Positions 2,499-61,710 are shown, counted from the first letter of the stretch. The stretch: 64,000 nt of DNA from an uncultured delta proteobacterium (GCA_963810935.1 CAWEPK010000012.1:1-64000), one strand, 5' to 3'. Numbers and translations: made by a program. The notes: generated from the letters alone by a model not told the origin.

Positions 2499-2508
2499 GA
2501 TTTTTTCC

Positions 2509-9053: not shown

Positions 9054-9083
9054 GATTAAGCCTCTCGTTTTATCTTGACGTCC

Positions 9084-40923: not shown

Positions 40924-40975
40924 TCCGCTTCATACTTATTTCGTTCCGAGAGAGGTAACAAGTGAAGAAAAGCAG

Positions 40976-41047
40976 AGCCGACGCGGGGATTTGAACCCCG
41001 GACCTGCTGATTACGAATCAGCTGCTCTACCACTGAGCTACGTCGGC
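40976..41047 (-). tRNA. tRNA-Thr(CGT)
   Basis: GCCGACG acceptor stem, anticodon arm GCTGA-TT-CGT-AA-TCAGC, GTTCAAATC T loop; CCA not encoded. Confidence 0.95.
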
Positions 41048-41821: not shown

Positions 41822-43006
41822 GTGGACCGACAGACTCGTTCCCGGCATTTTTCGTCGATATGGCGCTGCTTATTGTTCGGGCTGCTGCTCATAGTTGCAT
41901 CTACGCCCGCTCGCGCCGCCACTCTCGCGGATATCCCCGGCCCCGTTAGCGACGCTGCAATGCGTCTCGTGCGATATTGCAGCGATTTCAAGGCCGGTCT
42001 CGATGAACAGGCGGTTGCTACCCTGGTCGATTTCGTCCTGACGTCAAAGGACGGCAGTGAATACGCCCTCCCGAAATCGAATGAGTGCGTCGGGGCCTAC
42101 TATGATTTTCATACACAGACCGCCTTTCCCCGGTTGGTGGAGTATACCTATAGCTCATCCGTTCCGGCGGTCATTGCAAGACCATCGTCCCTGCGCTACT
42201 CCATATGGACGAATCCCGGAAACGACATGCAAAGGATGCCTCGAAAATGGAGCGCGATTCCGCCTAAAGGGGCTCCAGTCGTTATCCGCGGCAGGCAGCA
42301 CGAATCGAACACCCCTGACCTGAACACCGGCGTTTATTATGACTACGAGCTGGAAAGCACCCTTATTCTCCTTAACCACGACGGCCGGCAGGTGTTCATC
42401 TCCATATCGAAGCAGGTCGACAAATCAAGCGTCGGAAAAAAAGGGGTCATTCTGGGGAACGATAATGACTGGACCTACTTCTATTCGAATGAGCCGGGTA
42501 CCATGAAAAGCGGACTTGGGTGGGCAAAATCCTACATCTACGATTATTTTTCGGTTGTCGTTTATGTCGAATCGGACGGCTCGCCCGCAATGGTCAGTAC
42601 TGCAATGTTTCAATGGCTTCGAGCCGGCTGGATGGGTATCAACTTTGTCAAACCGGGTGATATACTGGGAGGCCTGAAACGATTCGCCACTAGTTTCAAG
42701 ACGGTCCTTGAGTCGCCGCGCCTTCCTGCCCCGAGTCAGCTCGCATCGGTCTATCGGTCGCTTTCAAACATGCCCGCATCTGATTTGACCCGTGAATATG
42801 CCGCACTACAGCAGGCGGTACGGTCCCTGGCTGTAGAGACCGGTAAAATAAGCGAATCCGGGGCTGACAAGAACCGATCCCGTGTTTACACATCAAGAAA
42901 GCAGATGGTGCAAGAGCTTATGCTCGAATACCTGAAAACAGCCCTGGGAAAACCAACACCCCTCGAAAAACGGTTCTTCCAGTCTTCAGCCGCGACATCA
43001 CAATAA
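41822..43006 (+). CDS. exported hypothetical protein
   Basis: 394-aa ORF with a Sec-type signal peptide (LLLIVASTPARA); no family recognised. Confidence 0.7.
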   Translation: MDRQTRSRHFSSIWRCLLFGLLLIVASTPARAATLADIPGPVSDAAMRLVRYCSDFKAGLDEQAVATLVDFVLTSKDGSEYALPKSNECVGAYYDFHTQTAFPRLVEYTYSSSVPAVIARPSSLRYSIWTNPGNDMQRMPRKWSAIPPKGAPVVIRGRQHESNTPDLNTGVYYDYELESTLILLNHDGRQVFISISKQVDKSSVGKKGVILGNDNDWTYFYSNEPGTMKSGLGWAKSYIYDYFSVVVYVESDGSPAMVSTAMFQWLRAGWMGINFVKPGDILGGLKRFATSFKTVLESPRLPAPSQLASVYRSLSNMPASDLTREYAALQQAVRSLAVETGKISESGADKNRSRVYTSRKQMVQELMLEYLKTALGKPTPLEKRFFQSSAATSQ

Positions 43007-43025: not shown

Positions 43026-44783
43026 CTACGCTTCAGGGTAGCTGATAACGTCGGAGGGACAGGTCGAGGCACACAGCCCGCATGCCACGCAGGTATCCTG
43101 CTTGATGTGGGCTTTCGGGACTACACTCTCCGTCTGCGGGCCGAAGAGGGCTACAGGCACTTGCACAAGCTCGATCTCGATGGCGCCGTGCGGGCACGCC
43201 TCCTTGCACGAGCCGCAGCCGCTGCACCGCTCTTCGTTGACTTCCGGCAGCACCCGCTCCTCTTCGTCGTCAAGCCGCATCTCGCCCATGGCCCCGAGCA
43301 CCTCGCGCGCCTCCCATCTGGCTGGGCGTGGGTGGCGGATGAAGCCGACGTGGTATCGCTTCCTGCCCCATTTCGTCGGCGACCAGCGCAACTGAGGCTC
43401 CGACCTGTAAGCAGAGAGGAATTCTTTACCGCGCACGACGGCAGCGCAATCGTCGAGCCGGATAACCTTATCGACCGCGAAGCGCATCTGCCTGCCGCCG
43501 CCGGAGACGACGACCGGTCCGCTATCCAACGTTACGTCTTCGCCCTCTTCCAGATGTATGAAGAGCACGCCCTCGCGCCTTGCCGCTTCATAGGCAAGCT
43601 CTTCATAAGAAGGCGCGGCCATGTTGCGCGTGAGCACGTAGACGGTCTTCCCTGCTGCGCGCAAGGTTCTCGCAGCATCGATGAACCTGGACGAGAAGAA
43701 TTCGTAGTACATCCGCGTTGCCGGGTCGTCCGTGCCCAGGTAGAAAAGGCAGGAATCGAAAGGACCGTCCGGGATGGAAATCTCCGGAGGCTCTTCCCTG
43801 TAAAGCCTTGCGTCGGGTGACGCAGGCAGCTTGCCGTTACCGCTCGCCCCTTTTGCTGCATCATGGACGGCTGCGAAACCGGCCCCAAAGCCCGTAAGGA
43901 TCGAGTCCTTGATGTTCATCGGCTCTAAGGCCCCGCCGCATGCATAGACGCCTTCCGCATCGGTAGCGAGCGCCCCTTTTTCACCGACGAAGCCGGAGGC
44001 ATTGAGCGAAAAGCCGAGCACGCCCGCAACGTCCGCAAGCGCCGGGTTCGGGCGCAGGCCGATCGCCATCACTACGTAATCGAACGCCTCTTCTTGGAGC
44101 TTGCCGGCCGAAAAATAGCGCAGCCGCACTTCATCGCCGTCAGCCTCGAAGTACCGCGAGTTGGCCCGGACGAACCTTACGCCGCCGTCGCGGTAGATCT
44201 TCTCCATGAAAAACTCGCTCCCGAACAGGCGCAGGTCGTTGTAGAAAACAGTAATGGCCGGGTTCGCCCTCTGGAGCGTCCACTTGATTTCTCTGATCGT
44301 GTAAGAACAGCAGACGGACGAGCAAAGGGGATACTCTTCGCAGCGCGAGCCGACGCACATGACGAAGGCGATACGGTTAAAATCTGCCGGCAGCTCGCCG
44401 TTCCGCTGGTCGATGAGGGCGTCATATTCGAGGCTCGTCAGTACCTTCGGCCCCTTATAGGCGACCGGGTCGTAAGGCAAAAGGCCCGTAGCGACGACGA
44501 CCTTATCCGCATCTATGGCCCGCCCGTCCGACAGAAGAAGGGAAAAGCCGCCGTTTCTTCTCTGCGCCGATACGATCCTTGCCCCGCTGATTACTGTAAG
44601 GCCGGGGTGGCCGCTTATCTCGTCGTGGAACGCCTTGAAGCCGACCCGGCAGTTGGCAATGCGCGCCATGAGGCCGCCGGGGGCGTCCGCCGCTTCGACC
44701 ACGGTGGCCTTATGGCCTTCTTTCAGTATGACTTTAGCGGCTGATATGCCGCTTATGCCGCCGCCCACTATGACTACGTTCAT
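43026..44783 (-). CDS. hdrA: reduced HdrA-like FAD/Fe-S protein
   Basis: GGGISG, CVGSR...CSSVCC, YNDLR, degenerate second module, C-terminal 2x[4Fe-4S]. Real start is ATG 44783. Confidence 0.78.
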   Translation of the reverse strand: MNVVIVGGGISGISAAKVILKEGHKATVVEAADAPGGLMARIANCRVGFKAFHDEISGHPGLTVISGARIVSAQRRNGGFSLLLSDGRAIDADKVVVATGLLPYDPVAYKGPKVLTSLEYDALIDQRNGELPADFNRIAFVMCVGSRCEEYPLCSSVCCSYTIREIKWTLQRANPAITVFYNDLRLFGSEFFMEKIYRDGGVRFVRANSRYFEADGDEVRLRYFSAGKLQEEAFDYVVMAIGLRPNPALADVAGVLGFSLNASGFVGEKGALATDAEGVYACGGALEPMNIKDSILTGFGAGFAAVHDAAKGASGNGKLPASPDARLYREEPPEISIPDGPFDSCLFYLGTDDPATRMYYEFFSSRFIDAARTLRAAGKTVYVLTRNMAAPSYEELAYEAARREGVLFIHLEEGEDVTLDSGPVVVSGGGRQMRFAVDKVIRLDDCAAVVRGKEFLSAYRSEPQLRWSPTKWGRKRYHVGFIRHPRPARWEAREVLGAMGEMRLDDEEERVLPEVNEERCSGCGSCKEACPHGAIEIELVQVPVALFGPQTESVVPKAHIKQDTCVACGLCASTCPSDVISYPEA

Positions 44784-45463
44784 ATTTTGCCGCTCTCTCC
44801 CATCACGTAGAGCAAAAGGTCCGTCAGGTAGATTACTTTCCTGTCGCGAGCGAATGTCGTCAGGGCCATGTGGCACAGGGGGCAGAAGACGACGAGTGTC
44901 CCCGCCGATTTTTCGAGGATCAGCATGGAAAGCTTTTCGGTGGCCCACTTGCCGGCAAAGAACCGGCCGCCGCCGCAGCATTTGTCCTTCACCTTCTCCC
45001 CTTCTATCTCCCCGCCGAAGAAGGAGATCGCCTCTTCCATGACGTTCTTGTTCCTGATGGCCGTCCCTTCCGGCCGAAGGAGTATGCACCCATAATAGGC
45101 CGTGAAAACGCGCCCTTTCAGGTCGCGCTTCGCCGGAAGACGCGAGAGCGCGTCCCCGTCGATAAGCTCCAGCGGGCTCAGCACGTTGAACGCCTTCTCC
45201 GCGTCCGCCTCCTTCAGGTTCTTATAACAGGCAGGGCAAGGCGCGACTATCCCCGCCCCGCTTGCGCCTTCCGCTTTTTGCAGGTTCTCGCCCGATAGTT
45301 TCAACAGCTCCCTGCGGTCGCCGTACTCCATCGCCCCGCAGCAGTTCCAGTCGGGCACGTCTTTCAGGGTGTGGCCCAGCGCAGCGGCAATCCGCCTCAC
45401 GCCCTTATCGAGGACGCGCGCGGAGCCTGTCAGTGAGCAGCCTGGGTAGTAGGCGTAATCCAT
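44780..45463 (-). CDS. hdrB: HdrB-like CCG-domain protein (short, 227 aa)
   Basis: YYPGCS, WNCCG, PCPAC, YYGC, KCCG, FCPLC. Confidence 0.85.
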   Translation of the reverse strand: MDYAYYPGCSLTGSARVLDKGVRRIAAALGHTLKDVPDWNCCGAMEYGDRRELLKLSGENLQKAEGASGAGIVAPCPACYKNLKEADAEKAFNVLSPLELIDGDALSRLPAKRDLKGRVFTAYYGCILLRPEGTAIRNKNVMEEAISFFGGEIEGEKVKDKCCGGGRFFAGKWATEKLSMLILEKSAGTLVVFCPLCHMALTTFARDRKVIYLTDLLLYVMGESGKI

Positions 45464-45922
45464 CTATCTCCTTTTCACCTTATGCGGCAGGTGGAAGCTC
45501 ACGTATCCGGTCCATCTGGTCAGGTGCTTCAGGTAGCCCTCCTTAACGAGGAAACCGAAGGCCCGCATGAATACGAACGGCTCGTACACCCTGCCAAGCG
45601 CGGCCACCGACGTTTTGAACGCCTTCTCGAAAGGCGAGGCGACGTGCAGCTCTTCGCGCAGGGCCATGACTACATCCGGCACGCGCACCTGCCACGGGCA
45701 GACCGAAGTGCAGCGGTAGCAGCCGGTGCAGTAGCGGACAAGGTCGTTATCCGCGTTGATCTCTTCCCCCAGGAACAGTTTCGCAAGCAGCTCCTGCGGG
45801 TTGACGCCGAGACCCAGGTCGTTAACCGTGCAGACGGACGCGCATATCTTGCAGCCGAGGCAGACCGAGAGGTCTTCCCAGCGAACCCCGGCGAACTCAA
45901 CAATGTTGTTAATCTTCTGCAT
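45464..45922 (-). CDS. hdrC: HdrC-like 2x[4Fe-4S] protein
   Basis: CLGCKICASVC, CTGCYRCTSVCP, F..SV...GRVYE. Confidence 0.85.
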   Translation of the reverse strand: MQKINNIVEFAGVRWEDLSVCLGCKICASVCTVNDLGLGVNPQELLAKLFLGEEINADNDLVRYCTGCYRCTSVCPWQVRVPDVVMALREELHVASPFEKAFKTSVAALGRVYEPFVFMRAFGFLVKEGYLKHLTRWTGYVSFHLPHKVKRR

Positions 45923-46931
45923 CGTGAAGCTCGTCCTCCTGGAACGTCAGATAGGGTATGGCCTCGTCGGCGCTGCGTCCCGACATGTAGCCGAACATGC
46001 CTTGCAGCCTTTCCGATATGCCTTTGAAGTAGCTCGCCAGCGGGATGGCCTGCGGGCAGGCCTCCTCGCACGCGCCGCACCCGACGCACGATTGTGACAC
46101 GTGAAACATTCTGACCAGATGAAAAACCTCGCGCCCCTGGGGCATGGCGCATGATCCGGTCCGCAGCACCTTGTTGAGCAGCGCATCGCCCTTCGGCACG
46201 TATTCATCGCCGTTGAACAGGCAGTCGATGCAGTAGCAGACCGGGCAGACGTCGCGGCAGTTCTTGCACATGATGCATGATGCGAAGTCTTTCTCGAAGG
46301 CGGCCATGTCCGTACGGAAAGGGGCATCCTTTGACGCGGCGGCATCAGTCAAAAGCATCTCCGGCGTCCCCTCCGCAGCATCAGTCTCGATGAGACCCAG
46401 GAACGATTCTCCCTTTTCCGTAAACGAGTACGCCCACAGGCTTCCGTCCGAGGCAACGCGTACGCCCGCGTCCCCAACTACCGCCCTGTGTTCCCTGCAA
46501 GTGCGGCAGGCGCTCCGCATCTTGTCGGATGTCTTGAAATATTCGGTGAGGCCCTGCGCGTCGGAAGGCAGGTCCGTGATTTTCTCCTTCGAAGAAACGG
46601 TGCCGGGGCAATCGATGCTCACCGCAATGATGCCCGCGGGCTCTACCTGGGTCAGTTTCGTCAGCTCGACGTACGACCTTATCTCGCAGGGGCGCAGCAT
46701 CAGCACAATCTTTGCGCCCTTTGAAAAGAGCCGCCGCAGATAGAGCGCGCCGTTCACGTCGAAGTAAGGGTTGAAGAGCACGTAATTGTCAACGGCCCCT
46801 TTGAAGATGCGGTGGCGCACGCCCGCAGGCCCCTTGTCAAACCCGAAGACAAGACAGCCCTCTTCGCTGAGGAACCGGTTGAGGGCGCCTGTGAGCGCGC
46901 CGTCTTTAAGCTTTTTTGCCTGCGTCTGCAT
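45909..46931 (-). CDS. FdhB/FrhB-related (FlxC-like) 4Fe-4S protein
   Basis: RPCE, DCPG, RSACRTC, CIMCKNCRDVCPVCYCIDC, FHLVRMFH...CVGCGACEEACP. Confidence 0.75.
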   Translation of the reverse strand: MQTQAKKLKDGALTGALNRFLSEEGCLVFGFDKGPAGVRHRIFKGAVDNYVLFNPYFDVNGALYLRRLFSKGAKIVLMLRPCEIRSYVELTKLTQVEPAGIIAVSIDCPGTVSSKEKITDLPSDAQGLTEYFKTSDKMRSACRTCREHRAVVGDAGVRVASDGSLWAYSFTEKGESFLGLIETDAAEGTPEMLLTDAAASKDAPFRTDMAAFEKDFASCIMCKNCRDVCPVCYCIDCLFNGDEYVPKGDALLNKVLRTGSCAMPQGREVFHLVRMFHVSQSCVGCGACEEACPQAIPLASYFKGISERLQGMFGYMSGRSADEAIPYLTFQEDELHDAED

Positions 46932-47328
46932 GGGCAGCTTCCTTTGTCCCTTCGTACAGGGCGGTCACTTTTTGAACGAAGCGGCGGGCCTCCGCTGCGC
47001 TCACCCAGAAGAGCCGCAGCCTGTCCTTCATGGAGAATGCGTCGAACATCTCCTTCAGGGCCGCGATCTTCCGCCTGGTAAAATAATTTCCCTTGATGAA
47101 ATGGCAATCGCCGGGATGGCAGCCCGCGACAAAGACCGCGTCCGCGCCGTCGAAGATCGACTTTATCACGAACGCCGGGTCCACCCTGCTTGAGCACGGC
47201 ACCTGGACGAGGCGCACCCCATCCGGGTATTTCATCCTGAGGCTGCCCGCCATCTCGGATGCCTTGAACGTGCAGAAGGAGCAGGCAAAACCGACTATCT
47301 GCGGCCGTACCCCGGTCTGTTCTCCCAT
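46906..47328 (-). CDS. mvhD: MvhD-like 2Fe-2S subunit (Cys form)
   Basis: FACSFC, VPCSSRV, GCHPGDCHF, WVSAAE. Confidence 0.92.
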   Translation of the reverse strand: MGEQTGVRPQIVGFACSFCTFKASEMAGSLRMKYPDGVRLVQVPCSSRVDPAFVIKSIFDGADAVFVAGCHPGDCHFIKGNYFTRRKIAALKEMFDAFSMKDRLRLFWVSAAEARRFVQKVTALYEGTKEAAHADAGKKA

Positions 47329-47350
47329 ATTTAAGTTCCCCTCTTATTAT

Positions 47351-49024
47351 TCATATGGCCTCCACGAGGGCCGATATCTCATCGTCTATCGCGCTGTCCA
47401 CATAGCCCCTAAGCCTGATGGCGGACGACGGGCATGTCGAGTTGCACAGGCCGCAGCCCATGCATGCCGCCTCCTCGACGCGGACTACCCGCGCCTCTTC
47501 GTCGAACTTTATCGCCTTCGCGACGCACGCCTTCTCGCACATCCTGCAACCGCTGCACCGCTTTATATCGACGGCAGCGACGAACGGGTCCACCGCTGCC
47601 CACCCCGCGCTTAAAAAACCGTAAAGCTTCATTGCCGAGGCCCTGCCGTGGTTGAGCGACTCTTCCATGTCCTTGGGGCCGGAGCACGTGCCTGCTATGA
47701 ATATGCCCTTGACCGCCGTATCGTACGGCCTGAGCTTTACATGCGCCTCGAGGAAGAACTTGTCCTTGTCGAGGGTGATCTTCATGAGCGACGCGATGGC
47801 CGCGCTGTCCGCAGGCGGCGACATGCCGACGGAGAGCACTGCGAGGTCGAATTCCCTTTCGAACGGCTCGTCGAGTAGCGTATCCTCACCGCGCACCAGC
47901 AACCCTTTCGGGCCGGGCACGATCTCCGCTACGTTGCCGCGCGTAAAAAGCGTGCCCTTCTCCTGCGTATCCTCGAAGAACTCCTCTCCGCCGCGCGGGT
48001 GGGCGCGTACGTCCATGTAGAAACACTCGACGTATGACCCATCGTACTTTTGCTTTACCGCCTCGGCGATGCGCAGGGCGTTGATGCAGCAGACCCTCGA
48101 GCAGTACGGCCTTCCCACCTGCTCGTCTCTCGACCCGACACAATGGAGGATGGCCACCCTGGGCTTCGCTGGCAGGGAAAGGCCCTCCCTTCTTTGCTCG
48201 AATTCAACCGTAGTCATGACCCGCTCGTCTTTGCCGTAGGCAAGCTCGGGTTTTGCTGATGCGTCGAAGGGGGAAAACCCGATCGCTATGATGCAGCCGC
48301 CAGCGGTTACCTCCCGCTCGCCGTCAGGGGTCTGTAAGGTCGCCCTGTAGTTTCCGAAAGCGCCCTCGAAATTGCTGACGGCCGTCGAGGTGAAAACCTC
48401 CACGTTGCTGCGGCCGCGCAATTCCGCTTCCATCTCTTCAATGACTGCGGCTCCGTCCTTCCTGATGGGCCATATATCCCTCAGCGTCCTCACGTGCCCT
48501 CCGAGGACAGGCCCTTTCTCGACGAGATAGACGTGCATGCCCATGTTCGACAGGAAAAGCGCCGCGGACAAGCCTGAGACGCCCCCGCCGACAATCAGGG
48601 CCGATTTCGTGACCTCGACCATCTTTTCTTCGAGGGGTACGTAATGGGCTGCGGAATAAAGACCTGCGCGGATCAGGCGTATGGCCTTTTCCGTGTTGCG
48701 GGCGACGTCGTCGCCCACCCAGGAGCAGTGCTCCCTGATGCCCACCCTGCGGAGCAGAAACGGGTTAAGGTTCGATTTTCGGAGGAGGTCCTTGAAAAGC
48801 TCGTCATGGAGCGACGGCGTGCACGAGGCGATGATTACGCGGTCGAGCCCTTCCTTCTCGATGCTCTCACGTATCATGTCCTGGCCCGGCTCCGAGCAGA
48901 CAAAGGGGTAATCGGATGCGACGATGACGTTAGGGAATGTGCTGAAGTAGTCGCGGACCTTCCGCACGTCAACCGTGTGCTTGATATTGTGCCCGCAATG
49001 GCAGATAAATATGCCTGTCTTCAT
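47351..49024 (-). CDS. hdrA: HdrA-like FAD/Fe-S protein
   Basis: FICHCG, CSEPGQ, SCTP, IREHCSW, GGGVSG, CVGSR...[15 protein letters not shown]-terminal ferredoxin. Start ATG 49024. Confidence 0.9.
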   Translation of the reverse strand: MKTGIFICHCGHNIKHTVDVRKVRDYFSTFPNVIVASDYPFVCSEPGQDMIRESIEKEGLDRVIIASCTPSLHDELFKDLLRKSNLNPFLLRRVGIREHCSWVGDDVARNTEKAIRLIRAGLYSAAHYVPLEEKMVEVTKSALIVGGGVSGLSAALFLSNMGMHVYLVEKGPVLGGHVRTLRDIWPIRKDGAAVIEEMEAELRGRSNVEVFTSTAVSNFEGAFGNYRATLQTPDGEREVTAGGCIIAIGFSPFDASAKPELAYGKDERVMTTVEFEQRREGLSLPAKPRVAILHCVGSRDEQVGRPYCSRVCCINALRIAEAVKQKYDGSYVECFYMDVRAHPRGGEEFFEDTQEKGTLFTRGNVAEIVPGPKGLLVRGEDTLLDEPFEREFDLAVLSVGMSPPADSAAIASLMKITLDKDKFFLEAHVKLRPYDTAVKGIFIAGTCSGPKDMEESLNHGRASAMKLYGFLSAGWAAVDPFVAAVDIKRCSGCRMCEKACVAKAIKFDEEARVVRVEEAACMGCGLCNSTCPSSAIRLRGYVDSAIDDEISALVEAI

Positions 49025-51737
49025 CTGCTTATATACTCCAGGCAGCGCGACGCCGCCTCCCCTGCCGAGGCGACCGTATCGGGGACGTCCTTCGGACCGG
49101 AGGCCATGCCGCAAACAAATATGCCTTCCACGTCCGTCTTCGACGGCGTCATGGCGTCAACTTTTACGAACCCGTACGTGTCCCGCTCGACGGAAGCCAT
49201 CGCGCAGAGATCGGCTGTCTCCGCACGCGGCCTTACACCTGTCGCCAAAATGACGAGATCGACCTCAATTTCCGCAAGCTCTCCGGATAACATGTCCTCG
49301 ACCCTGACGAGAAAGCCGTTCTCTCCCTTCGTCACCTCGCCGGGCAGGCCCCTTATGTAGCGCACGCCCGCCTCCTGCGCGCTCTTGTAAAATTCCTCGT
49401 AGTTCTTACCGTAAGCGCGCACGTCTATATAGGAGACGTAAACCTCCGCGCCCTTTATCCTGTCGAACACGATGCTCGCGTGCTTCGCCGTATACATGCA
49501 GCAGACGCGGGAGCAAAAGCGCGCGCCCGTCTGCCTGTCCCTGGAGCCGACGCACTGGATGAAAAAGAAGCGCTTCGGCTCTTTTCCATTTACGATGATA
49601 TCGCCGCCGGTCGGCCCCGTGACAGAGCAAATCCTTTCGAACTCGATGCCCGTCAACACGCCCTCCAGCCTGCCGTACCCGTATTCCCCCTTTTCGGTCG
49701 GGTCATACAAGTCGAAGCCGGGGGCGAGGATTATGCCGTCGCAGGCGAGGTCTATAGTCTCGTCTTTCATCGTGTAGTCGATGGCCTTAACGTCACAGCG
49801 GCGTGCGCATTCGCCGCATTCGATGCATCCCTCGACCTGCCCCGCGAGGCAGCGGGATGCTTCCCTGCCTGCCGCCTCCGGCCCGTAGGCCAGGCGGACC
49901 TCCCGGAAATCGGTAACCCGCACCTCCGGCGCTTCTTCCGGCACGGACTCGCGCCGCGCCGGTGCGACCTTCGCCTTTAATTCGGCTTTCTCGGCCTCCG
50001 TTAAGCGGCTGCGGCAGCCTCTGCTGCGGCCTCGGCAACGGGAAGCGGCTCTCCCTTCATGTACAGGTCCATCGACGCGGCCGCCCGCTTGCCTGCCGCT
50101 ATGGCATCGATCACGTATGCCGGGCCTGTGGCTACGTCCCCTCCCGCGAACACGCCCGGCCGGTCCGTCGCGCCTGTCGCCGGGTCCGCCTTTATCGTAC
50201 CGTCTTCCGCTATAGATATGGAAAGGGCGGCGGCAAAGGACGTCTGCGGCGATTGGCCGAGTGCCGTTATCGCCATATCCACCGGAAGCCTGAATTCCGA
50301 GCCTGCCACGGGCAGCGGGCGCCTGCGGCCGGTGCGTCCGGCGCGCCAAGCTCCATGCGCACGCACTCGATCTCCGAAAGCTCCCCGTCTACGGCTATGA
50401 ACCGAACAGGCGCGGCCAGGTATTCGAGCGCTATCCCTTCGGCTGCGAGGGCCTCCACTTCTTCGGCTGCTGCGGGCATCTCCGCTTGCGGTCCTCCGGT
50501 AGATGACGGTCACGTCACTACCGAGCCTTCTCGCAGTCCGCGCGCAATCGACAGCCGTATTGCCTCCGCCTATGACGGCCGCGCGCTTGCCCACGGAAAG
50601 GAACTGCGAGCTTTCGACTGCGCGCAGGAACGTGAGACCGTCGATCACGCCGGGAATGTCTTCGCCGGGTACATTCAGGGCGATGCCGCGCGGCGCGCCC
50701 GTCCCGATGAAGACCGAGTCGTAGCGGGAGGCGATGTTATCCAGCTCCAGGTCTTTCCCTATCGCGACACCGCATTCGATGCGGACGCCTTCCCTGCGGA
50801 TGTACTCAATCTCTGCGGCAAGCTCCGACTTGGGCAGCCTATACTCCGGTATGGCGTACCGCAGCATGCCGCCCGGCTCGGGCAGGGCCTCGAAGACAGT
50901 CACGTCATGGCCCGCAAGGGCAAGATCATGGGCGCATGCGAGCCCGGCAGGGCCTGCACCCACCACCATCGCCCTCTTGCCCGTTTTCTGCAACTGCGGC
51001 GGCGCAGGCTGGACAGGCGCAAGGTCCGCGATTGCCCGCTTCACGTCGCGTATCGCAAGGGGCTGGTCGATCTCTCCCCTGTTGCAGACGCCTTCGCAGG
51101 GCGCATAGCAGACCCTCCCGCAAACGGAAGGGAACGGGTTCGTCTGCCTTATCAGCAGGTAGGCTTCCTCGAACCTGCCCTCGCTTGCATGTTTAAGGTA
51201 ACCCGGCACGTTCGTATGCACCGGGCAGGCGGCGATACAGGCCGCGTGGCACTGCCTCGACCTGCGCTTGTCGATGCTCGCCTTGTTGGGGATCGCCTGC
51301 GGGAAGGGGATGTAAATCGCCTTGCGCGGTCCGGTCCCCATGTTGAACTCGCTTTTCATCACAACGGGGCAGAACGCCGAGCACGCGCCGCATGCGTTGC
51401 ACTTCGCCGTATCGACGAAGCGTGATTTTTTGAGGAGCCTGACCGAGAACCCGTTGTCCGATTTTTCAATGGAGACGGGGCGCGTCCACGAGAGGAGGTC
51501 GATATTCTTCTTGAGCGCCACCTCGACCATCTTGGGCGAGAGCGTGCACGTAGAGCAGTCGAGGGTGGGGAAGGTCTTGTCGAGCTGGATCATCCTGCCG
51601 CCGATAGACGGCCCGGCCTCGACCATAGTCACACGGACGCCGCACGAGGCAAGGTCCAGGGCTGCGGTAATGCCCCCGATACCACCCCCCACGACGACGA
51701 CGTGCTTATCCGCCCCTTCCACCCGAACTTCACTCAT
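49021..51737 (-). CDS. hdrA: HdrA/HdrL-like protein with an inserted GltD/NfnB-like NAD(P)H-FAD domain (at least 3 frameshifts near 50485, 50340 and 50005)
   Basis: [18 protein letters not shown], ferredoxin, then CIAACP...[11 protein letters not shown]...GAGPAG...IGGGNTA...GDVATGP, then CIECGEC, CVGSR...CSRVCCMY. Pieces lie in track ORFs 50001..51737, 50267..50479 and 49021..50349. Confidence 0.85.
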
Positions 51738-52669
51738 CCTTTTAAAATATCTTTCATCTTGTCCCGAAGCTTGTTCGCGTCGCCCACGAACCCGAAATGG
51801 GCGTACTGGAAGATAGGCGCTTCAGGGTCCTTATTGATCGCGATGATGCACTCCGAGTCCTTCATCCCCGCGATATGCTGGAACGCGCCGGAGATGCCCA
51901 TCGCAAAATAGACCTTCGGCTTGACGGTCTTGCCCGACGTCCCTACCTGGCGCGGTTTTGGGAGCCATGCCTTGTCGATGACCGGCCTCGACGCGGACAG
52001 CGTGGCCCTGAGCATGTCGGCAAGCTCCTCGTAGGCCGGTATCTCGTCTTTGCTGCCTATGCCCCTGCCGACTGAGAGCAGGAAATCGGCCTTCGTGATA
52101 TCGATGGCCCCTTTCTCTTCCTCGACGTACTCGATGAAGCTGCGTCCTGCGTCGGCCTCTACTGCGTCGAGCATCGTCTCCGCCGCCTGGGCGCCTTTCG
52201 GCGCAGCCTGTTCCTTGAAGCTGCCGCTCCTGACCGTTGCTATGAAGCAGCCTTCATGCGGCTTGAACTCGCCGAATATCTTGTCCGAATAATAGCTCTT
52301 CACGAAAACGCCGTTGGCCGCCTCGAAGCCGCTCACGTCCGTAATAAGGGGCATGTTAAGACTGCCCGCAGCGTATGACGCAAGCTCGATGCCCGAAGAC
52401 GAGCCGGTGAAGAGTATCGCGTCCGGCATGCCGCCGGCATCGATTGCCTTTTGAAGTATGCGGACCATGTTGAGCGGGTTTAAGAAGTCGGTCTCCGGCG
52501 CCTGCGCCCTTATTACGGCGTCGCTCAATTCCCCGCTGCCGCATACCGCGCCCGCCGGGGCGAGCAGCCGCACCTCCTTGCCCAGCAGGCGCGCAAGGCC
52601 GATGGCGTCCAGGTTCCGTTCCTCGAAAACTCCGCGCCTTACCTCTGCGACAACCAGTGCGTAGCTCAT
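51734..52669 (-). CDS. etfA: electron transfer flavoprotein alpha subunit
   Basis: [43 protein letters not shown]. Start ATG 52669. Confidence 0.95.
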
Positions 52670-53445
52670 TGATACACCCCCTTGTCCTTCAGGATGCCGA
52701 GAAGCTCCTTGCACACCCCGTCGGGCTCCCCTTGCAGCATGACGGCGCCGCCCTTCTTCGCGGGGTAGACCCACCTGACGAGGTCGATCATGCCTGCCGC
52801 GCCCTCTTTATATGCGCCTGCCTTGAAGACCTTCCTCTCGACCTTCGACGCCTTCCTGATGCCCATGATCGATACGTAGCGCGGCTCGTTGATCCCGCTC
52901 TGAATGCCGAGGACGCACGGCAGCGCAAGATTGACGCGCTCCTGAAGGCCGCCTTCCAGCTCCCGCCGTATCGTCGCCCGGCCCTGCTCGAAGGCATCGA
53001 TGCCGATCACCATGGAGGCATAGGGCAGCCCCAGCTTTGCAGCGAGGATGCCGCCGACGGACGCGAACTGGTCGTCCTCGGACTGCACGCCCGTAAAGAT
53101 CGCGTCGAAGGAGACGGACTCTTTCTTGAGGAAATCATAGAGCAGGCCGGCCCTCGCCATCGGGTCGTTAAAAGGGTCTTCGGACTCGACGAGGAAGCCG
53201 TCTTTCGCGCCCATCGCGATGGCCCTTCTCAGGACCTCGTCCGATTCGGCGTTGCCCATGGATATCGCCGTCACATCGCCGCCCGCCTTCTCCACTATCG
53301 AGACCGCTGCCTCGACCGCGTAGTTGTCCCAGTCGTTCACCTTGAACGGCACCTTCGAAAGATCGACGCGCTGCCCGTCGTCGACGATGCGCAGCTCCTC
53401 TTCCTGTGTAGCAGGGACTCGCTTCGTGAACACCAACAGGTTCAT
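52666..53445 (-). CDS. etfB: electron transfer flavoprotein beta subunit
   Basis: KRVP, NDWDNYAVE, AIAMGA, GVQSED, RELEGG, NEPRY. Confidence 0.95.
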   Translation of the reverse strand: MNLLVFTKRVPATQEEELRIVDDGQRVDLSKVPFKVNDWDNYAVEAAVSIVEKAGGDVTAISMGNAESDEVLRRAIAMGAKDGFLVESEDPFNDPMARAGLLYDFLKKESVSFDAIFTGVQSEDDQFASVGGILAAKLGLPYASMVIGIDAFEQGRATIRRELEGGLQERVNLALPCVLGIQSGINEPRYVSIMGIRKASKVERKVFKAGAYKEGAAGMIDLVRWVYPAKKGGAVMLQGEPDGVCKELLGILKDKGVYQ

Positions 53446-54537
53446 CTATATGACCTCCATAAGTATCTCTGAAAGCTCCTTGACCGTCTGGCCCTTCTCC
53501 TTTGCCGCGTCCTCCAGGGTCATGAGGCAGAACGGACAGGCCGTCGCTATGATCTCGGCGCCCATCTGCGCCGCATCGGCAGCGCGGACTTCCGCGTTCC
53601 GCAGACCCTTCGTCTCCTCCACCTCGAAGAACATCCTGCCGCCCCCGCCCTCGCAGCAAAGCGACGTCTCCCTCGAACGGCTGAACTCCAACAGCTCCAG
53701 TCCCCCGATGGAGCGCAGCACGTTCCTGGGCTCGTCGAAAACACCGTTCTGCTTGCCCAGGAAGCAGGGGTCGTGATATGCGACCTTATGCTCGTACTTC
53801 CCCTCGATCTTTAAGGCCCCTTCCCCGATAAGCCGGGCGAGGACCTCCGAATAATGGGATACCTTTATCCCAAGGTCTCCGTATTCTTTTTTGAGGGCGT
53901 TCATGCAATGGGGCGAAAGGGCGATGATCTCGCGCACCCCGTATTCCTTGAGGGCCTCGCAGTTCTCCTCGCGAAGCTCGTCGAAGAGGCCCGTCTCGCC
54001 TATCCTCCTGATCTCGTTGCCGCAGCAGGCCTCCTCTTCCCCCAGCACGCCGAACTCATAGCCCGCCTTGTGGAAGAGGGCAGCGACGTTTGCAGGGATG
54101 ACCATGCAGCGGGGGTCGTACGCCTGGATGCAGCACGTGAAAAGGAGCCGTTTCGACGTCGTCTCGCCGACGTGGGGCACATCGAAGCCCGCCTTCTCGA
54201 CCCACGCTCCCCTTTTGGCGCGCGAGCGGCCCCAGGGGTTCTTCTGCACGAAGGTATTTTCCAATGCCTTCTGGACCGATACGGGTATGCGCCCCTCTTC
54301 GACGAGCGAAGACCTGACCTCGATAACGACTTCCGAAGGTTTTACGTCCCTGGGGCACCGGAGCGTGCAGGCGCCGCAGGAGGTGCAGTACCAGGGGATA
54401 GCGGCCTCCACGTCGCGCATGAACTGTCTTTTTCGGACCATCATGCGGATGTTGAAGGCGGTCCTGCCTGCCTCGGGACAGCTCCCGGTGCACCGGCCGC
54501 ACTGTATGCACGTTAGGAGGCGACTGCTAGGCTCCAA
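53446..54537 (-). CDS. soluble BamD/HdrD-like Fe-S oxidoreductase (2x[4Fe-4S] plus two CCG domains)
   Basis: CIQCGRCTGSCP, CTSCGACTLRCP, ACCG, SPHC, YHDPCFLG, LCCEGGGG, TACPFC; no TM helices apparent. Confidence 0.88.
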   Translation of the reverse strand: MEPSSRLLTCIQCGRCTGSCPEAGRTAFNIRMMVRKRQFMRDVEAAIPWYCTSCGACTLRCPRDVKPSEVVIEVRSSLVEEGRIPVSVQKALENTFVQKNPWGRSRAKRGAWVEKAGFDVPHVGETTSKRLLFTCCIQAYDPRCMVIPANVAALFHKAGYEFGVLGEEEACCGNEIRRIGETGLFDELREENCEALKEYGVREIIALSPHCMNALKKEYGDLGIKVSHYSEVLARLIGEGALKIEGKYEHKVAYHDPCFLGKQNGVFDEPRNVLRSIGGLELLEFSRSRETSLCCEGGGGRMFFEVEETKGLRNAEVRAADAAQMGAEIIATACPFCLMTLEDAAKEKGQTVKELSEILMEVI

Positions 54538-55672
54538 GGAGCTTCCTGCCGATCAAAACTTTCTCGACTTCTTTCGTCCCCTCGAAGATCTCGAACACCT
54601 TGGCGTCGCGCCAGTAGTGCTCGACGTCGTATTCCTTCAGGATGCCGTAGCCGCCGTGCAACTGGATCGCCTCGTCCGCGACTTTTACCGCGATCTCACA
54701 CGTGTACCATTTCGCCATTGCGATGAGAGCGGGGTCAACATCTCCCCTGTCGACCGCCGAGGCGGCTCTGTAATAGATGCTTCTCCCCGCTTCCACCATA
54801 GTAGCCATTTCCGCGATCTTGGCCTGGACGATCTGAAGGCCGGACAGGGTCGTCCCGAACGCCTTCCTTTTTTTGACATGGCTTATCGCTTTATCGAGCG
54901 CGCCCTGGGCCGTGCCGATGGCAAGCGAGCACCCGCCCTCGAGCCTGGCGCGGTTGAAAAACTCCATGAGCTGGTAAAAGCCCTTGCCCTCCTTGCCGAC
55001 AAGGTTGCTCTTCGGCACCCGGACCTCTTTGAACGCGATCTCCCCCGTGTCGGAGCACCTGATGGAAAGCTTGCCGTGGAGCTTGCTCGCCTCGTAACCC
55101 GGCCGGTCCGTCTCGACGACGATCGTCGAAAACCTTTCGTGCCGCTTGGGGTTCGTCGGGTCCGTAACGCAGAGGACGACTATGAAGTTCGCGCAGTTTG
55201 CGTTCGTTATGAAGGTCTTGGTGCCCGAAATGACATATTCGTCGCCGTCCGACACCGCCGAGGTCGTCATCGAGGCAACGTCGCTGCCCGCGTCCGGCTC
55301 GGTCGAGGCCATGCCCGCCCGCCAAACTCCTGCGCAAACGGGAGGCAGGTACTTATTCTTTTGTTCTTCAGTGCCGTAGAGGTTGATCATCTGCGTGCCG
55401 AAGTGGCACGCGTTCAGCGTTTGCGCAATGCCCCCGTCTACACGGGCAAACTCTTCGAAGATGAGGCACTGCTCGAAGCTGCCGAGCCCGGCGCCGCCGT
55501 ACTGCTCGGGTATGAAAGCGCCGATAAACCCGTTCTCGGCGGCCTTCTTCCATATTGTGTCGTCGAACTTCTCATTCTCGTCAAGCTCCCTCGCGACGTC
55601 CCTGAATTCTTTTTCGGCGAATTCGCGCGCAGCCTGCCTGATGTCCTTCTGCTCATTCGTCAGGTCGAACAT
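54527..55672 (-). CDS. acyl-CoA dehydrogenase
   Basis: PEQYGG, STEPDAGSD, GTKTFITN, QLHGGYG, RDAK...IFEGT. Start ATG 55672. Confidence 0.95.
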   Translation of the reverse strand: MFDLTNEQKDIRQAAREFAEKEFRDVARELDENEKFDDTIWKKAAENGFIGAFIPEQYGGAGLGSFEQCLIFEEFARVDGGIAQTLNACHFGTQMINLYGTEEQKNKYLPPVCAGVWRAGMASTEPDAGSDVASMTTSAVSDGDEYVISGTKTFITNANCANFIVVLCVTDPTNPKRHERFSTIVVETDRPGYEASKLHGKLSIRCSDTGEIAFKEVRVPKSNLVGKEGKGFYQLMEFFNRARLEGGCSLAIGTAQGALDKAISHVKKRKAFGTTLSGLQIVQAKIAEMATMVEAGRSIYYRAASAVDRGDVDPALIAMAKWYTCEIAVKVADEAIQLHGGYGILKEYDVEHYWRDAKVFEIFEGTKEVEKVLIGRKLLGA

Positions 55673-55717: not shown

Positions 55718-55733
55718 AGCAATCTTTATACCA
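55718..55733 (-). promoter_or_regulatory. sigma-54 (-24/-12) promoter of the acd-etf-hdr operon
   Basis: Minus strand TGGTATAAAGATTGCT, i.e. GG-N10-GC, 45 nt before the acd ATG. Confidence 0.75.
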
Positions 55734-55939: not shown

Positions 55940-57172
55940 ATGGACGGTAAGGCCGGAAAAGACCTGTCGGCACACGCCAAAAAGGCCCGTCAAAGAGCAG
56001 GCGGCGGCCAACCCGCCCGAAGGCGGCGCCCGCAGCCAGGCCGAAGAAACAAAAAGGCGACGACGAGTTCCTCCGCCTGAGCGAGTTCAATAAAGCCATT
56101 ATCAGCCACTCTCCCGTCGCAATCTTCACCCTCGACAAGGACGGCGTCTTCACCAGCGTCAACCCGGCCCTCGGCGTCATTTCGGGCCTGGGGCACAACG
56201 CGGGCAAGAAGCTCATCGGGTTCAATTGGCTCAGGAACTCGTACACGATAAAATCGGGACTGGCGGCCCACATCACCCGCGCCCTCGAAGGCGAGCCGTT
56301 CCAGCTCTGGGATTTCCCTTTCATAACCTACGAAGGCGACAGCAATAATTTCATCGACTTCAAGGGCGTCCCCCTAAAAGCGAAAGACGGCACGATCGAG
56401 GGCCTGCTCTGCATGATCGAGGAGACGACCGAGCGCGTAGAGACAAGGGCCCTCCTCATGCAGGAGGCGCGCAAATCGGCGGTCGGCAGGCTCGCGGCGG
56501 GGATCGCCCACGAGCTGAACAACCCCCTCGCTACCCTCGTCGCCCACGTGGAGCTTGCGGTCAACTACCTGAAATCGCTCGAAGCATCGACTGCGGATAA
56601 GGCGCTCCTCGACGAGCTGCGCGACTACCTGTCCGTCATCGAGACCCAGGCGTTCCGCTGCAAGGACGTCACGGGCAGCATCCTCAGCCTGCCCTGGAAA
56701 GAAGGGCTCGAAATTACGGAGATCGATATCAACGGCCTTCTCGACAGCATCGTCGACTCGGCGGACACGGGCAAATCAGAGGCGCGGATCGTCAGGGAAT
56801 TCTCCCCCCTGCCGAACGTCCGTGGCAACGTCGAGCTCTCTGCGGCAGGTCTTTTTGAACCTTATCAGCAACGCGTGCGACGCAGTCGAGGGAAGGATGG
56901 GCGCAACCGTGCGCGTGACGACTTCCGCCCCGGCCGGCGAGGTAGTCGTCCGCGTCCGCGACAACGGCAACGGCGTCCCGGCCGCCATGCTGAATAAAAT
57001 ATTCGAGCCGTTCTTCACTACCAAGGAATCAAAACAGGGGGTCGGCCTCGGCCTGGCCTTGTGCCGCGAGTTCCTTACCCACGCGGGCGGCAGCGTAAGG
57101 GCCGAAAGCAGTCCGGGACGGGGTTCCACGTTCATCGTCACCCTCCCGGCTAAGGGAGCGCGCAAGAGATGA
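55940..57172 (+). CDS. PAS-domain sensor histidine kinase (frameshifts near 56000 and 56840; start uncertain)
   Basis: PAS domain (AIISHSPVAIFTLDKDG...SVNPA) in frame upstream of track ORF 56413; GRLAAGIAHELNNPL H-box; QVFLNLISNA, DNGNG, FEPFFTTK, GVGLGL. Confidence 0.88.
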
Positions 57173-58556
57173 TAAGAGTACTTATCGTCGACGACGAAGT
57201 ACAGCTCATCAAGGCATTCAAAAAGCAACTGACCGAGGACGGCATGTCGGTAGTCACGGCCGCCTCCGCCGGCGACGCGCTCGGCATCATTGCAGAGCAG
57301 ACTTTCGACGTGGCGGTCCTCGATATCAAGCTGCCCGACCTGGACGGCCTGGAGCTGCTCCTGCGGATGAAGCAAGCGGAGCCGAGTGTGGAGGTAGTTA
57401 TACTCACGGGCTACGCCTCCATCGACACCGCCATCCGCTCAATGAAGCTGGGCGCGTACGATTACCTGACTAAGCCGTGCAAGATCGCGGAGTCTGGAGA
57501 AAGTGATTGCGAAAGCGTACGAGAACAAGGCCCTCAAAGAAAAAAACATCGTCCTTGCGGAGCACCTCCACAGGATCGGCGCGCACGACGCTTTCATCGG
57601 CGAAAGCAAGCAGATCATGAAGGTGCGGAAGCTGATATCCATAGTGGCCGCCTCCGGCACGCCGGTGCTGATCCTGGGCGAGACCGGCGTAGGCAAGGAG
57701 GTCGTAGCCAGGTCCATACACGACCGTTCCGGGCGCGTCGGCAACCCCTTCGTAACGATCAATGCGAGCGCCCTCCAGGAGAGCATCCTCGAAAGCGAGC
57801 TTTTCGGCTACAAGAGAGGCGCGTTTACGGGCGCCCAGGCAAATAAGCTCGGACTCCTGGAGATAGCCCATAACGGCACTTTTTTCATCGATGAGGTGGG
57901 CGACATGGGCATATCCATCCAGGCGAAGATATTGCGCGCCCTGGAGACGGGGGCCTTCATGAAGCTGGGCGACACGAAGGAGACGAAGGTGGACACCCGC
58001 TTCATATTCGCCACGAACAAGGACCTTAAAAACAAGATAGAAGAAGGTCTTTTCAGGAAGGACCTTTTCTTCAGGATTAACGGCTTCACGATCACCCTCC
58101 CTCCCCTGCGCGAAAGGAAGGGCGACATCCTCCTGCTGGCGAATTACTTCCTCGAAAAACTGAACAGGGGGAGCACCAGAAAGCGCCTATCGAGGGACGC
58201 GGCCGATTGGCTGGTCACTTACGAATGGCCGGGCAACGTCAGGGAGCTGGCAAACGTCGTCGAGCGGTCACTCCTTCTCAGCGGGCCGCGTGAGGAGATC
58301 GTAGTCGATGATTTCCCCGAGTCCATGCAGCCGGACGGAAACGCAGTCGAGGTCAGCGCGGCAGGAGGGCGGCGGCCAGGCGGATGTTTTCGAGCTTGCC
58401 CGTCTCGAAGACGAGCATATCGGAAAGGCGCTTCACTCTGCGATGGGCAACAAGAGCAAGGCCGCGCGGTTACTCGGGATCAGCAGGAAGACGCTCTACA
58501 ACAAGCTCATGCGCGGCACGAGCGGCGAAGGCCGGGGGAAAGCCGGGCAGCGGTAA
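57169..58556 (+). CDS. NtrC-family sigma-54 response regulator (frameshifts near 57490 and 58370)
   Basis: Receiver domain (IVDDE, LDIKLP, LTKP), GETGVGKE, ESELFG...GAFTGA, WPGNVREL, Fis-type HTH GNKSKAARLLGISRKTLY. Confidence 0.93.
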
Positions 58557-58741
58557 GTGCGCGGCCGGGAAAGGCCGCCGGCAGGACCACCGCGTATACG
58601 GGGCAGTCCCCGGCCAGGAACACCCGGGTAGACTCCCCACTGTATAAATCTTTTACAATTGGGTCATTTTGAGCCACATGGGCGTAGGCGATGCGGCCTG
58701 CTTCATCTCCGAAACGCGTTTATAAGCAATACAACGTATTC

Positions 58742-58757
58742 TGGCATTTTACTTGCA
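58742..58757 (+). promoter_or_regulatory. sigma-54 (-24/-12) promoter of the TRAP/ligase operon
   Basis: TGGCATTTTACTTGCA, i.e. GG-N10-GC; imperfect palindrome TGTATAAATCTTTTACA at 58641-58657 upstream. Confidence 0.8.
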
Positions 58758-58827
58758 TTTTTGAATTCGCCGATTGTAAAGTTAGTTAGAATTTAGTTCG
58801 AGCGCAAAGTCCAATTAAGGGGGGATT

Positions 58828-59850: not shown

Positions 59851-59892
59851 AAGCCGACACGCGCCGACGTCTTTTCTTGATAGGAGTCCCAG

Positions 59893-60378
59893 ATGAACGG
59901 ATTCAATAATATCGTTCTGAAGTTGGCCAAGTCCATGGACGTCCTGGGCGGGCTCGTTCTCAGCTTCATGATGCTTATCACGGTGGCCGATGTCGTCCTG
60001 CGCGTTTCCGGCAGGCCGATAACGGGCACTTACGAGCTGGTCTTCCTGAGCGGCGCAGTCGTTATCGCCTGCGCCATCCCCATGACTTCATGGGAGGGCG
60101 CGCACGTCAACGTCGATTTCGTGGTCATGGGCTTTTCCAGGACCATGCGAAAGATAGTAACGGTCTTCACCAGGTTCTTCGGCATCGCCTTTTTCTTCCT
60201 CCTGGGATGGAACCTCTTTGCCCTCGGGACGGAGCTTTACAGCAAGGAAGAGGTCTCCCTCACACTCCACGTGCCCATCTACCCCGTCGCATACATTCTG
60301 GGGATATGCGCGTTCGTCGAATGTCTGGTGCTCGTCTCGGACATGATACAGACGCTAATGGAGGCCAGACATGAATGA
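59893..60378 (+). CDS. dctQ: TRAP transporter small permease
   Basis: Four TM helices, DVVLR, HVNVD. Confidence 0.92.
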   Translation: MNGFNNIVLKLAKSMDVLGGLVLSFMMLITVADVVLRVSGRPITGTYELVFLSGAVVIACAIPMTSWEGAHVNVDFVVMGFSRTMRKIVTVFTRFFGIAFFFLLGWNLFALGTELYSKEEVSLTLHVPIYPVAYILGICAFVECLVLVSDMIQTLMEARHE

Positions 60379-61672: not shown

Positions 61673-61710
61673 ATGCGCAACGGAATAGAAATAGATTAGG
61701 GGGGCCGGAA

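Follow-up and report, generated by a model that had tools for sequence, protein, structure and literature searches.

A conserved Syntrophorhabdales gene cassette predicted to connect an electron-transferring flavoprotein to an HdrA module

Results

The stretch of DNA analysed here, called the window throughout, comprises 64,000 nucleotides from an uncultured delta proteobacterium (GCA_963810935.1, CAWEPK010000012.1:1-64000). It is contig C12 of a 4.06-Mb genome, and close homologues carry the source names Syntrophorhabdales and Syntrophorhabdaceae. Eleven genes, all on the minus strand, run from position 55672 down to 43026 in the order acd-ccg-etfB-etfA-hdrA1-hdrA2-mvhD-fdhB-hdrC-hdrB-hdrA3, with spacings of -26 to +22 nt. 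They specify an acyl-CoA dehydrogenase, an iron-sulfur protein with CCG domains, an electron-transferring flavoprotein (ETF) and a series of Hdr-type proteins, and we think it likely that the ETF is linked through the CCG protein to HdrA1. The genes are as follows.

54527..55672, minus strand: acd, acyl-CoA dehydrogenase, 381 residues (Pfam Acyl-CoA_dh N, M and C domains)
53446..54537, minus strand: ccg, soluble HdrCB-like protein of BamD/EMO type with 2x[4Fe-4S] and two CCG domains, 363 residues (PDB match, S-P-H-C motif)
52666..53445, minus strand: etfB, predicted non-bifurcating, single-FAD type, 259 residues (PDB 1O94, motif)
51734..52669, minus strand: etfA, 311 residues (Pfam ETF and ETF_alpha)
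49021..51737, minus strand: hdrA1, TrxR domain and inserted ferredoxin domain with a GltD insert (motifs; frameshifted in the assembly)
47351..49024, minus strand: hdrA2, N-terminal domain, TrxR domain and C-terminal ferredoxin, 557 residues (alignment to 5ODC_A)
46906..47328, minus strand: mvhD, Cys form, 140 residues (PF02662)
45909..46931, minus strand: fdhB, FdhB/FlxC-like iron-sulfur protein, 340 residues (PDB sequence and fold matches)
45464..45922, minus strand: hdrC, two [4Fe-4S] motifs, 152 residues
44780..45463, minus strand: hdrB, short HdrB with ten Cys, 227 residues (PDB HdrB alignments)
43026..44783, minus strand: hdrA3, TrxR domain, remnant second TrxR half and C-terminal ferredoxin, 585 residues (motifs, fold)

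Searches of Pfam, NCBIfam and the PDB agree with these identities. None of the eleven products contains a hydrophobic stretch of at least 1.8 on the Kyte-Doolittle scale (maxima 0.98-1.67); in the same test the genome's membrane ETF:menaquinone oxidoreductase (EMO) gives five stretches over the threshold. The initial annotation, which had described eleven adjoining genes for soluble proteins of these kinds and no membrane subunit, is borne out in both respects. The hdrA1 reading frame is interrupted by single-base indels near 50487, 50334 and 50000-50020, all within the GltD insert. Because scattered single-base indels also occur in other genes of the assembly and in a close relative (G002), a genuine pseudogene was thought unlikely, and the frameshifts are likely assembly errors.

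The arrangement is conserved far beyond chance. Of 60 relatives, 54 gave a strong HdrA3 orthologue and six gave none; loci were fetched for 53 of the 54, and these are related by descent, so that they are not independent counts. The ten-gene order from ccg to hdrA3 is complete in 45 of the 53, seven further loci are colinear but cut by a contig end, and one is a 2-kb contig with hdrA3 alone. In all 45 complete loci mvhD-fdhB stands immediately behind hdrA2, and FlxA and FlxB are absent from the cassette. The expected synteny is therefore present, for ten genes. The acd gene, counted as an operon member in the initial annotation, does adjoin ccg in the window but does so in only 7 of the 45 complete loci (within 7 kb in 25); it is a variable add-on outside the conserved unit. 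Its product meets no NCBIfam equivalog cut-off, the top score being that of the acryloyl-CoA reductase AcrC (368 of 640 bits). Acyl-CoA ligase and TRAP transporter genes lie near the cassette in relatives.

Two further features bear on transcription.

55718..55733, minus strand: sigma-54 -24/-12 motif TGGTAT-N5-TTGCT, 46 nt before the acd start
56413..58672, plus strand: divergent histidine kinase and sigma-54 response regulator, both frameshifted (Pfam)

No second match to the sigma-54 motif occurs on the operon strand over 13.2 kb. Among relatives such a motif lies no more than 300 nt from ccg in 25 of 39, as compared to 0.9% of shuffles, and a kinase or sigma-54 regulator gene stands directly upstream of ccg in several. 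Given the position of the motif near ccg and the regulators that flank the start in relatives, the conserved transcription unit most likely begins at ccg, with acd added on, and the kinase and regulator at 56413..58672 are likely to control the operon. Scans for sigma-70 promoters and terminators gave chance-level counts (7 versus 4.1 and 15 versus 13.2, respectively). Metatranscriptome contigs from four bioreactor and wastewater sets, derived from strains about 95% identical, carry pieces of one relative's cassette (L027) from ccg to hdrA3, some of them spanning gene borders; they were discounted as evidence of co-transcription because the coverage extends to flanking genes and contigs are no proof of a single transcript. 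What stands of the operon claim is a probably co-transcribed ten-gene unit, based on the synteny and the sigma-54 motif, with acd variable. Around it, the kinase and regulator genes are followed by TRAP transporter and acyl-CoA ligase genes (window 56413-63249, plus strand), with similar flanks in many relatives. A convergent 394-residue open reading frame with a signal-peptide-like start and without a Pfam or NCBIfam match lies at 41822-43006 (plus strand), and the window also holds tRNA-Thr (40975-41047) and tRNA-Arg (12742-12818) genes.

The protein that stands between the ETF and the HdrA proteins is the CCG protein. Its best PDB match is the soluble part of EtfD/EMO (9OJN, E 4e-54); it has no transmembrane stretch and the NarI-like heme b domain is absent. 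An S-P-H-C motif is present in 39 of 39 CCG sequences and in the genome's two proteins resembling BamD of class II benzoyl-CoA reductase (BCRII). The His is the counterpart of the residue that fills the heterodisulfide site in EMO, and the Ser two residues earlier is shared with the BamD-like proteins. According to the accessible part of a recent preprint, this His blocks the coenzyme M site in EMO (bioRxiv 10.64898/2026.08.18.745454). In a tree built by quick search, 24 ETF-linked CCG proteins form one clade (support 99) that lies beside the BamD-like proteins (86), with EMO outside. The CCG protein thus matches the description of a BamD-type HdrBC fusion with a His-blocked site and an altered distal cluster, the comparison being with the genome's BamD-like proteins rather than with Geobacter metallireducens BamD. 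Cryo-ET and cryo-EM structures show ETF docked to BamD and to EMO, and in vitro ETF is reduced by BCRII, as far as the available portions of these preprints go (bioRxiv 10.64898/2026.04.10.717634; bioRxiv 10.64898/2026.08.18.745454). Since these relatives dock ETF, we propose that the CCG protein is a predicted ETF dock as well.

The ETF itself appears to be of the ordinary kind. The closest solved structure to EtfB is the Methylophilus ETF (1O94), and its sequence reads GVQ(S/A)ED(D/E) in 39 of 39 cases at the place where the genome's bifurcating-type ETF has DGDT, which we take to be the motif that binds the beta-FAD in bifurcating EtfB. The operon ETF is accordingly predicted to be non-bifurcating, and the bifurcating flavin is proposed to lie among the HdrA proteins.

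Of these there are three by gene count, as the initial annotation had it, but two of them appear to be halves of one protein. HdrA1 has neither the N-terminal nor the C-terminal domain, and in HdrA2 the inserted ferredoxin is missing. As a pair they are colinear with fused proteins of BamE and HdrL type from the same genome, HdrA2 matching the C-terminal half, and only jointly do they supply the N-terminal, inserted-ferredoxin and C-terminal ferredoxin domain set, MvhD being present besides. By alignment, then, HdrA1 and HdrA2 are the halves of a split BamE/HdrL. Lys at position 409 and Glu at position 356 have been proposed as markers of bifurcating HdrA (PMC12054007). Counting along an alignment to 5ODC_A, we found K409 in 37 of 37 HdrA1 sequences (CCMYTAK), with E356 kept and an E(F/L)ER pattern in 35 of 37; a DCxxC motif, probably equivalent to the Cys59-Cys62 pair of BamE, is invariant too (37/37). 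HdrA2 has R at position 409 in 27 of 34 sequences and K in 7. In HdrA3 the residues are R (120/120) and D (116/120). A TrxR domain with both markers is therefore present in HdrA1, mostly absent in HdrA2 and absent in HdrA3, so that the HdrA bifurcation module claimed initially holds for HdrA1, is inconsistent for HdrA2 and fails for HdrA3. The division between the first two parallels BamE, with which they are colinear, and whose TrxR1 holds the bifurcating FAD while TrxR2 is non-bifurcating, according to the accessible text of bioRxiv 10.64898/2026.04.10.717634. By this reasoning HdrA1 would carry the bifurcating FAD and HdrA2 would probably be non-bifurcating. Taken together, the synteny, the BamD/EMO-type dock and the HdrA1 signature uphold the claim that the ETF is tied to an HdrA module.

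In relatives HdrA1 is a single frame of about 900 residues in 29 of 37 cases and a protein of about 430 residues without the GltD insert in the other 8. Where present, the insert interrupts the inserted ferredoxin domain and has both GGGNTA and YRR (29/29), which we take to be an NADP(H) signature. One could envision that no bifurcation takes place and that the operon is simply a wire from NADPH, through this insert, or from a thiol, to ETF and on to an enoyl-CoA reductase encoded by acd. The AcrC score of acd, below cut-off as it is, and the frequency of the NADP-type insert speak for such a wire; the insert is nevertheless dispensable, acd is not a fixed member, and K409, E356 and DCxxC are invariant in HdrA1, which makes this reading very improbable.

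The third protein, HdrA3, looks like a shrunken fused HdrA. Its predicted model has a pLDDT of 83, with the HdrA-like structure 6TJR as best fold match. Just after the FAD-binding motif lies an IANCR sequence whose Cys45 (window 44649-44651 region) is invariant in 119 of 120 sequences; this residue might serve as a redox cysteine close to the flavin, or be a cluster ligand left as a remnant. HdrA3 is nearly order-specific: in a phylum sample its C-terminal part had matches in 13 of the order's 14 other genomes and in 2 of 386 outside it, and a profile search of 1.84 billion representatives returned two full-length clusters. In one genome (G400) the orthologue stands alone among unrelated genes (L086:1532-3352) and the remainder of the cassette ends at hdrB on another contig.

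Between these HdrA proteins are encoded the candidate components of a third port. The FdhB-like protein matches FdhB structures in the PDB (9T1S, 7BKB and 8RVU; 7BKB_E and 8RVU_E by sequence and fold) and is 25% identical to the genome's own FlxC part. Because it has an FdhB-like fold in which the N-terminal GGxVT-type motif, presumably the FAD motif of FdhB, is not conserved across 37 sequences, it is probably a flavin-less connector like FlxC. HdrB keeps ten Cys, with CPAC and YYGC(L/V/I) motifs, and lacks a blocking His, so that it may be a site for a thiol/disulfide couple. It departs from canonical HdrB disulfide reductases, however, in being only 227 residues long and in having L, V or I in place of the His behind the second YGC in 38 of 38 sequences. 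DsrC was considered as the obligate disulfide partner and rejected: of the 34 genomes of family f4, 15 gave no DsrC match, among them several that are 99-100% complete and carry the cassette. When 61 genomes of the order were searched for a sulfite-reductase domain, 39 gave matches; in many cassette carriers this domain was not found either. The genome studied here has dsrAB, a two-Cys dsrC and dsrMK(JOP)-like genes at C10:306000-317500 and a second dsrAB-like pair at C8:662500-664200.

Cassettes of related design occur outside the order. Members of the ETF clade (E up to 1e-45) were present in 87 of 401 genomes; the 14 order genomes with a match had a single copy each. Outside the order we looked at 34 etfB loci in 33 genomes, a selection made by score and family and not at random. 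Eleven of them follow an EMO-type gene and 18 precede hdrA1-hdrA2, 13 of these with a soluble ccg in front within the fetched stretch; one is a ccg-etf-acd group at a contig end, and four have neither EMO nor hdrA1-hdrA2 as neighbours. The third module varies. In families f16 and f50 it consists of mvhD-fdhB-hdrCB with a fused HdrA that bears the Lys, in family f14 of NuoE/NuoF/NuoG-like genes, and elsewhere nothing evident was seen; cassettes of the last kind often lie amid genes for beta-oxidation and B12-mutase. Since a NuoEFG module replaces mvhD-fdhB-hdrCB in one family, ccg-etf-hdrA1-hdrA2 is, judging from gene order, the stable core. In the f14 genomes (G269, G211, G070, G111, G147 and G352; loci L156-L161) NuoF- and NuoG-like genes stand before etfBA-acd-hdrA1-hdrA2, with NuoE and ccg in front of them in L156; B12-mutase, adenosyltransferase and thiolase-like genes follow, and the whole resembles BamDEGHI without BamBC. 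A molybdopterin-family neighbour in f14, tried as a formate dehydrogenase, lacks RxCH, by our assumption the motif of that enzyme, in 4 of 4 sequences and was treated as NuoG/BamI-like.

This modularity raises the question of whether the operon encodes two co-regulated complexes, CCG-ETF-HdrA1-HdrA2 and MvhD-FdhB-HdrC-HdrB-HdrA3, joined by diffusible carriers. The second would be a degenerate unit of HdrABC/HdrL type like Sfum_0819-0824 or Dred_1325-30, and the mid-potential partner of the first would be encoded elsewhere. The halves do assort separately: families f14, f18 and f112 have the first but lack the second, and in f50 the two have changed places; hdrA3 is an orphan in G400, and hdrCBA-mvhD-fdhB units without ETF are known elsewhere. 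Yet mvhD-fdhB never leaves hdrA2 in the complete loci, and the HdrA3 of the second module, with R and D and no K409, offers no evident energy-coupling site on its own. We hold two complexes to be unlikely, though less so than either of the other two alternatives considered in this study.

The initial annotation had gone further and suggested a membrane-independent route for reverse electron transfer. In the strong form of this idea, acyl-CoA/ETF electrons would be confurcated with those of reduced ferredoxin onto NAD(P)+, or raised to the H2 or formate level, and the route would take the place of the membrane reverse loop in syntrophy. A soluble, conserved, ETF-linked cassette, often in a beta-oxidation context (acd within 7 kb in 25 of 45), is what such a route would call for, and the NuoE-NuoF-NuoG-like NADH module between ccg and etfB in f14 would permit ETF and ferredoxin electrons to reach NAD+. 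The genome, however, encodes a five-helix EMO, with orthologues (at least 60% identity) in 58 of 60 relatives. No etf genes were found beside EMO in 21 of 21 loci (3-8 kb fetched on each side); the cassette ETF is thus the natural partner of EMO and probably serves it also, so that the operon can be explained without a membrane-independent route. Energetics point the same way. Literature potentials are -10 or +16 mV for ETF and -500 mV for ferredoxin; general values are -450 mV for ferredoxin, -280 mV for NAD, -370 mV for NADPH and -150 mV for a disulfide. With these partly textbook figures, transfer from reduced ETF plus reduced ferredoxin costs +5 to +12 kJ per two electrons to NAD+ and +7 to +14 kJ to the H2/formate level, while -13 to -20 kJ are gained with a -150 mV disulfide (5-8 kJ with NADPH as low-potential donor). 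The Syntrophorhabdales cassette has no NAD-type module in its mid-potential arm. Its GltD insert, of NADP type, belongs to the low-potential arm, and 8 of 37 sequences lack it, which makes NAD(P)+ an unlikely acceptor; of the two acceptors originally named, the disulfide fits best. Finally, BCRII, the only characterised HdrA-ETF link, reduces ETF. The membrane-independent route is weakened to the point of being improbable.

Discussion

In the interpretation that we favor, by a modest degree, the operon encodes a soluble bifurcating assembly of HdrA type with ETF on its high-potential arm. Its layout would be that of BCRII minus the tungsten catalytic module and the NADH module. HdrA1 and HdrA2 would pair as a split BamE in which HdrA1, whose signature is seen and whose activity is predicted, holds the single bifurcating FAD. 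Homology and synteny suggest that the high-potential arm leads from HdrA1 through the BamD/EMO-like CCG protein to the non-bifurcating ETF, whose exchange partners would be acyl-CoA dehydrogenases and, very likely, the orphan EMO as well. On the low-potential arm the inserted ferredoxin domain would meet ferredoxin, or NADP(H) in those proteins that have the GltD insert. The mid-potential port would run from the C-terminal ferredoxin of HdrA2 through MvhD and the FlxC-like protein to HdrA3, predicted to be non-bifurcating, and HdrCB, and from there to a thiol/disulfide couple; we advance this thiol port only tentatively, the chances being somewhat against it. In the forward direction, reduced ferredoxin or NADPH would be formed along with reduced ETF for enoyl-CoA reduction or for EMO, as the characterised relatives bifurcate and reduce ETF. 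In reverse, reduced ETF together with reduced ferredoxin or NADPH would reduce a disulfide, which should be feasible by 5-20 kJ. Of the options in the initial annotation, the disulfide acceptor and operation opposite to its proposed confurcation fit best.

Several observations weigh against the bifurcating assembly. Its support comes from sequence and gene context, with binding and activity predicted. The grouping of the CCG protein with BamD has a support of only 86, in a quick search with long branches. HdrA2 retains K in 7 of 34 sequences, so the one-flavin picture is not universal, and its homologues outside the order keep K. The mvhD-fdhB-hdrCB genes of f16 and f50 follow a separate fused HdrA with K and so may form a second complex rather than the mid-potential port. 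Score and family, not chance, decided the choice of the 34 loci outside the order. DsrC, a candidate disulfide partner, was not found in 15 of 34 f4 genomes. Lastly, hdrA1 is frameshifted in the assembly.

How the high-potential electrons of acyl-CoA dehydrogenases are handled in strict anaerobes is a central question of syntrophy, and the accepted answer is the membrane loop through EMO. The operon looks like a free-standing, nearly order-wide HdrA-ETF link. EMO probably draws on its ETF too, and in sister cassettes the third module is exchanged for another. All its parts belong to known families, which keeps the surprise moderate. If the assembly bifurcates as predicted, the partner repertoire of HdrA is wider than thought, a complex simpler than BCRII becomes available for the study of ETF-coupled bifurcation, and energy models for aromatic-degrading syntrophs need revision. 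A bolder proposal, speculative and rather unlikely in our estimation, is that the cassette is the first known of a family of soluble ETF-coupled bifurcating HdrA complexes, built on ccg-etfBA-hdrA1-hdrA2 with an exchangeable third module and distributed over Syntrophorhabdales and several further families of the phylum, of which the Syntrophorhabdales member confurcates electrons from ETF and ferredoxin or NADPH onto a thiol, as a quinone-free alternative to the EMO loop, with ETF as the switch point between membrane and soluble routes.

We found no description of the cassette in the full text searched, subscription papers and preprint supplements lying outside that search, nor in the accessible portions of PMC5606693, PMC5736913, PMC7382037, PMC5371069 and PMC5109826. 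The statement in the initial annotation that no complex of this composition has been characterised agrees with the literature so covered. The only HdrA-to-ETF link that has been shown lies inside benzoyl-CoA reductase, to judge from the available text of bioRxiv 10.64898/2026.04.10.717634.

That enzyme is the closest comparison. The Bam[(BC)2DEFGHI]2 complex of Geobacter metallireducens and its ETF, BamOP, share with the cassette an HdrA pair with one bifurcating and one non-bifurcating FAD, an MvhD adaptor and a blocked HdrBC-like subunit that hands electrons to ETF; the system is cytoplasmic and its ETF is reoxidised by EMO. The cassette differs in having neither the BamBC tungsten module nor BamGHI, in the splitting of HdrA over two genes, often with a GltD insert, in the addition of FdhB-like, HdrC, HdrB and HdrA3 proteins, and in carrying the etf genes inside the operon. 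No AOR (BamB) gene lies in the cassette; AOR genes occur elsewhere, among other places at window 9610-11580. The NuoEFG-like BamGHI, absent here, are present in the f14 variant. About 31 kb away the window contains a bamBCD-fdhD-bamEFGH-like cluster (570-11580, minus strand; AOR, BamD-like, fused HdrA, MvhD, NuoE and NuoF) whose BamD is 38% identical to the CCG protein. An uncharacterised HdrA-AOR cluster with a second BamD-like gene, a fused HdrA, MvhD and a 605-residue AOR-family gene lies at C8:524000-530500.

EMO/EtfD of Syntrophus aciditrophicus (9OJN), an ETF:(methyl)menaquinone oxidoreductase, resembles the CCG protein in its soluble cubane and non-cubane domains with the blocking His, and ccg immediately precedes etfBA as emo does at other loci of this ETF clade; the CCG protein, in contrast, has no NarI-type membrane domain or hemes and is wired to HdrA and not to quinone. 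ETF-less clusters with hdrL or hdrA, mvhD, fdhB-like, hdrC and hdrB genes and no catalytic hydrogenase or formate dehydrogenase are described in the consulted parts of PMC5947623 (Syntrophobacter fumaroxidans Sfum_0819-0824), PMC4759654 (Desulfotomaculum reducens Dred_1325-30) and PMC2702500 (Desulfobacterium autotrophicum locus VIII), and for Smithellaceae in bioRxiv 2024.08.04.606487. The first three are uncharacterised and have been proposed to reduce DsrC. Compared with the clusters as presented in these texts, the cassette has an ETF and a BamD-like dock, a split HdrL and a degenerate HdrA3, and DsrC is missing from many of its carriers. The FlxABCD-HdrABC system (Hdr-Flox/Hdr-Ifo) of Desulfovibrio vulgaris and Syntrophorhabdus aromaticivorans shares MvhD (FlxD), a FlxC-like connector and HdrABC with the cassette, from which the FlxA/FlxB NADH module is missing; a separate Hdr-Flx-like cluster lies at C7:70800-77600 of the genome. 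At C16:124700-148000 the genome also has ACS/CODH genes with hdrCB-hdrL-mvhD-metVF and an hdrCBA-mvhDGA hydrogenase. With the bifurcating Bcd-EtfAB of Clostridium and Acidaminococcus the cassette may have in common the net coupling of enoyl-CoA reduction to ferredoxin reduction, but the operon ETF has no bifurcating beta-FAD motif and the proposed bifurcating flavin would reside in HdrA1. The cassette, then, is neither BCRII nor EMO, Flx-Hdr or a bifurcating ETF; the known system that it would work like is the BamDEF-ETF part of BCRII.

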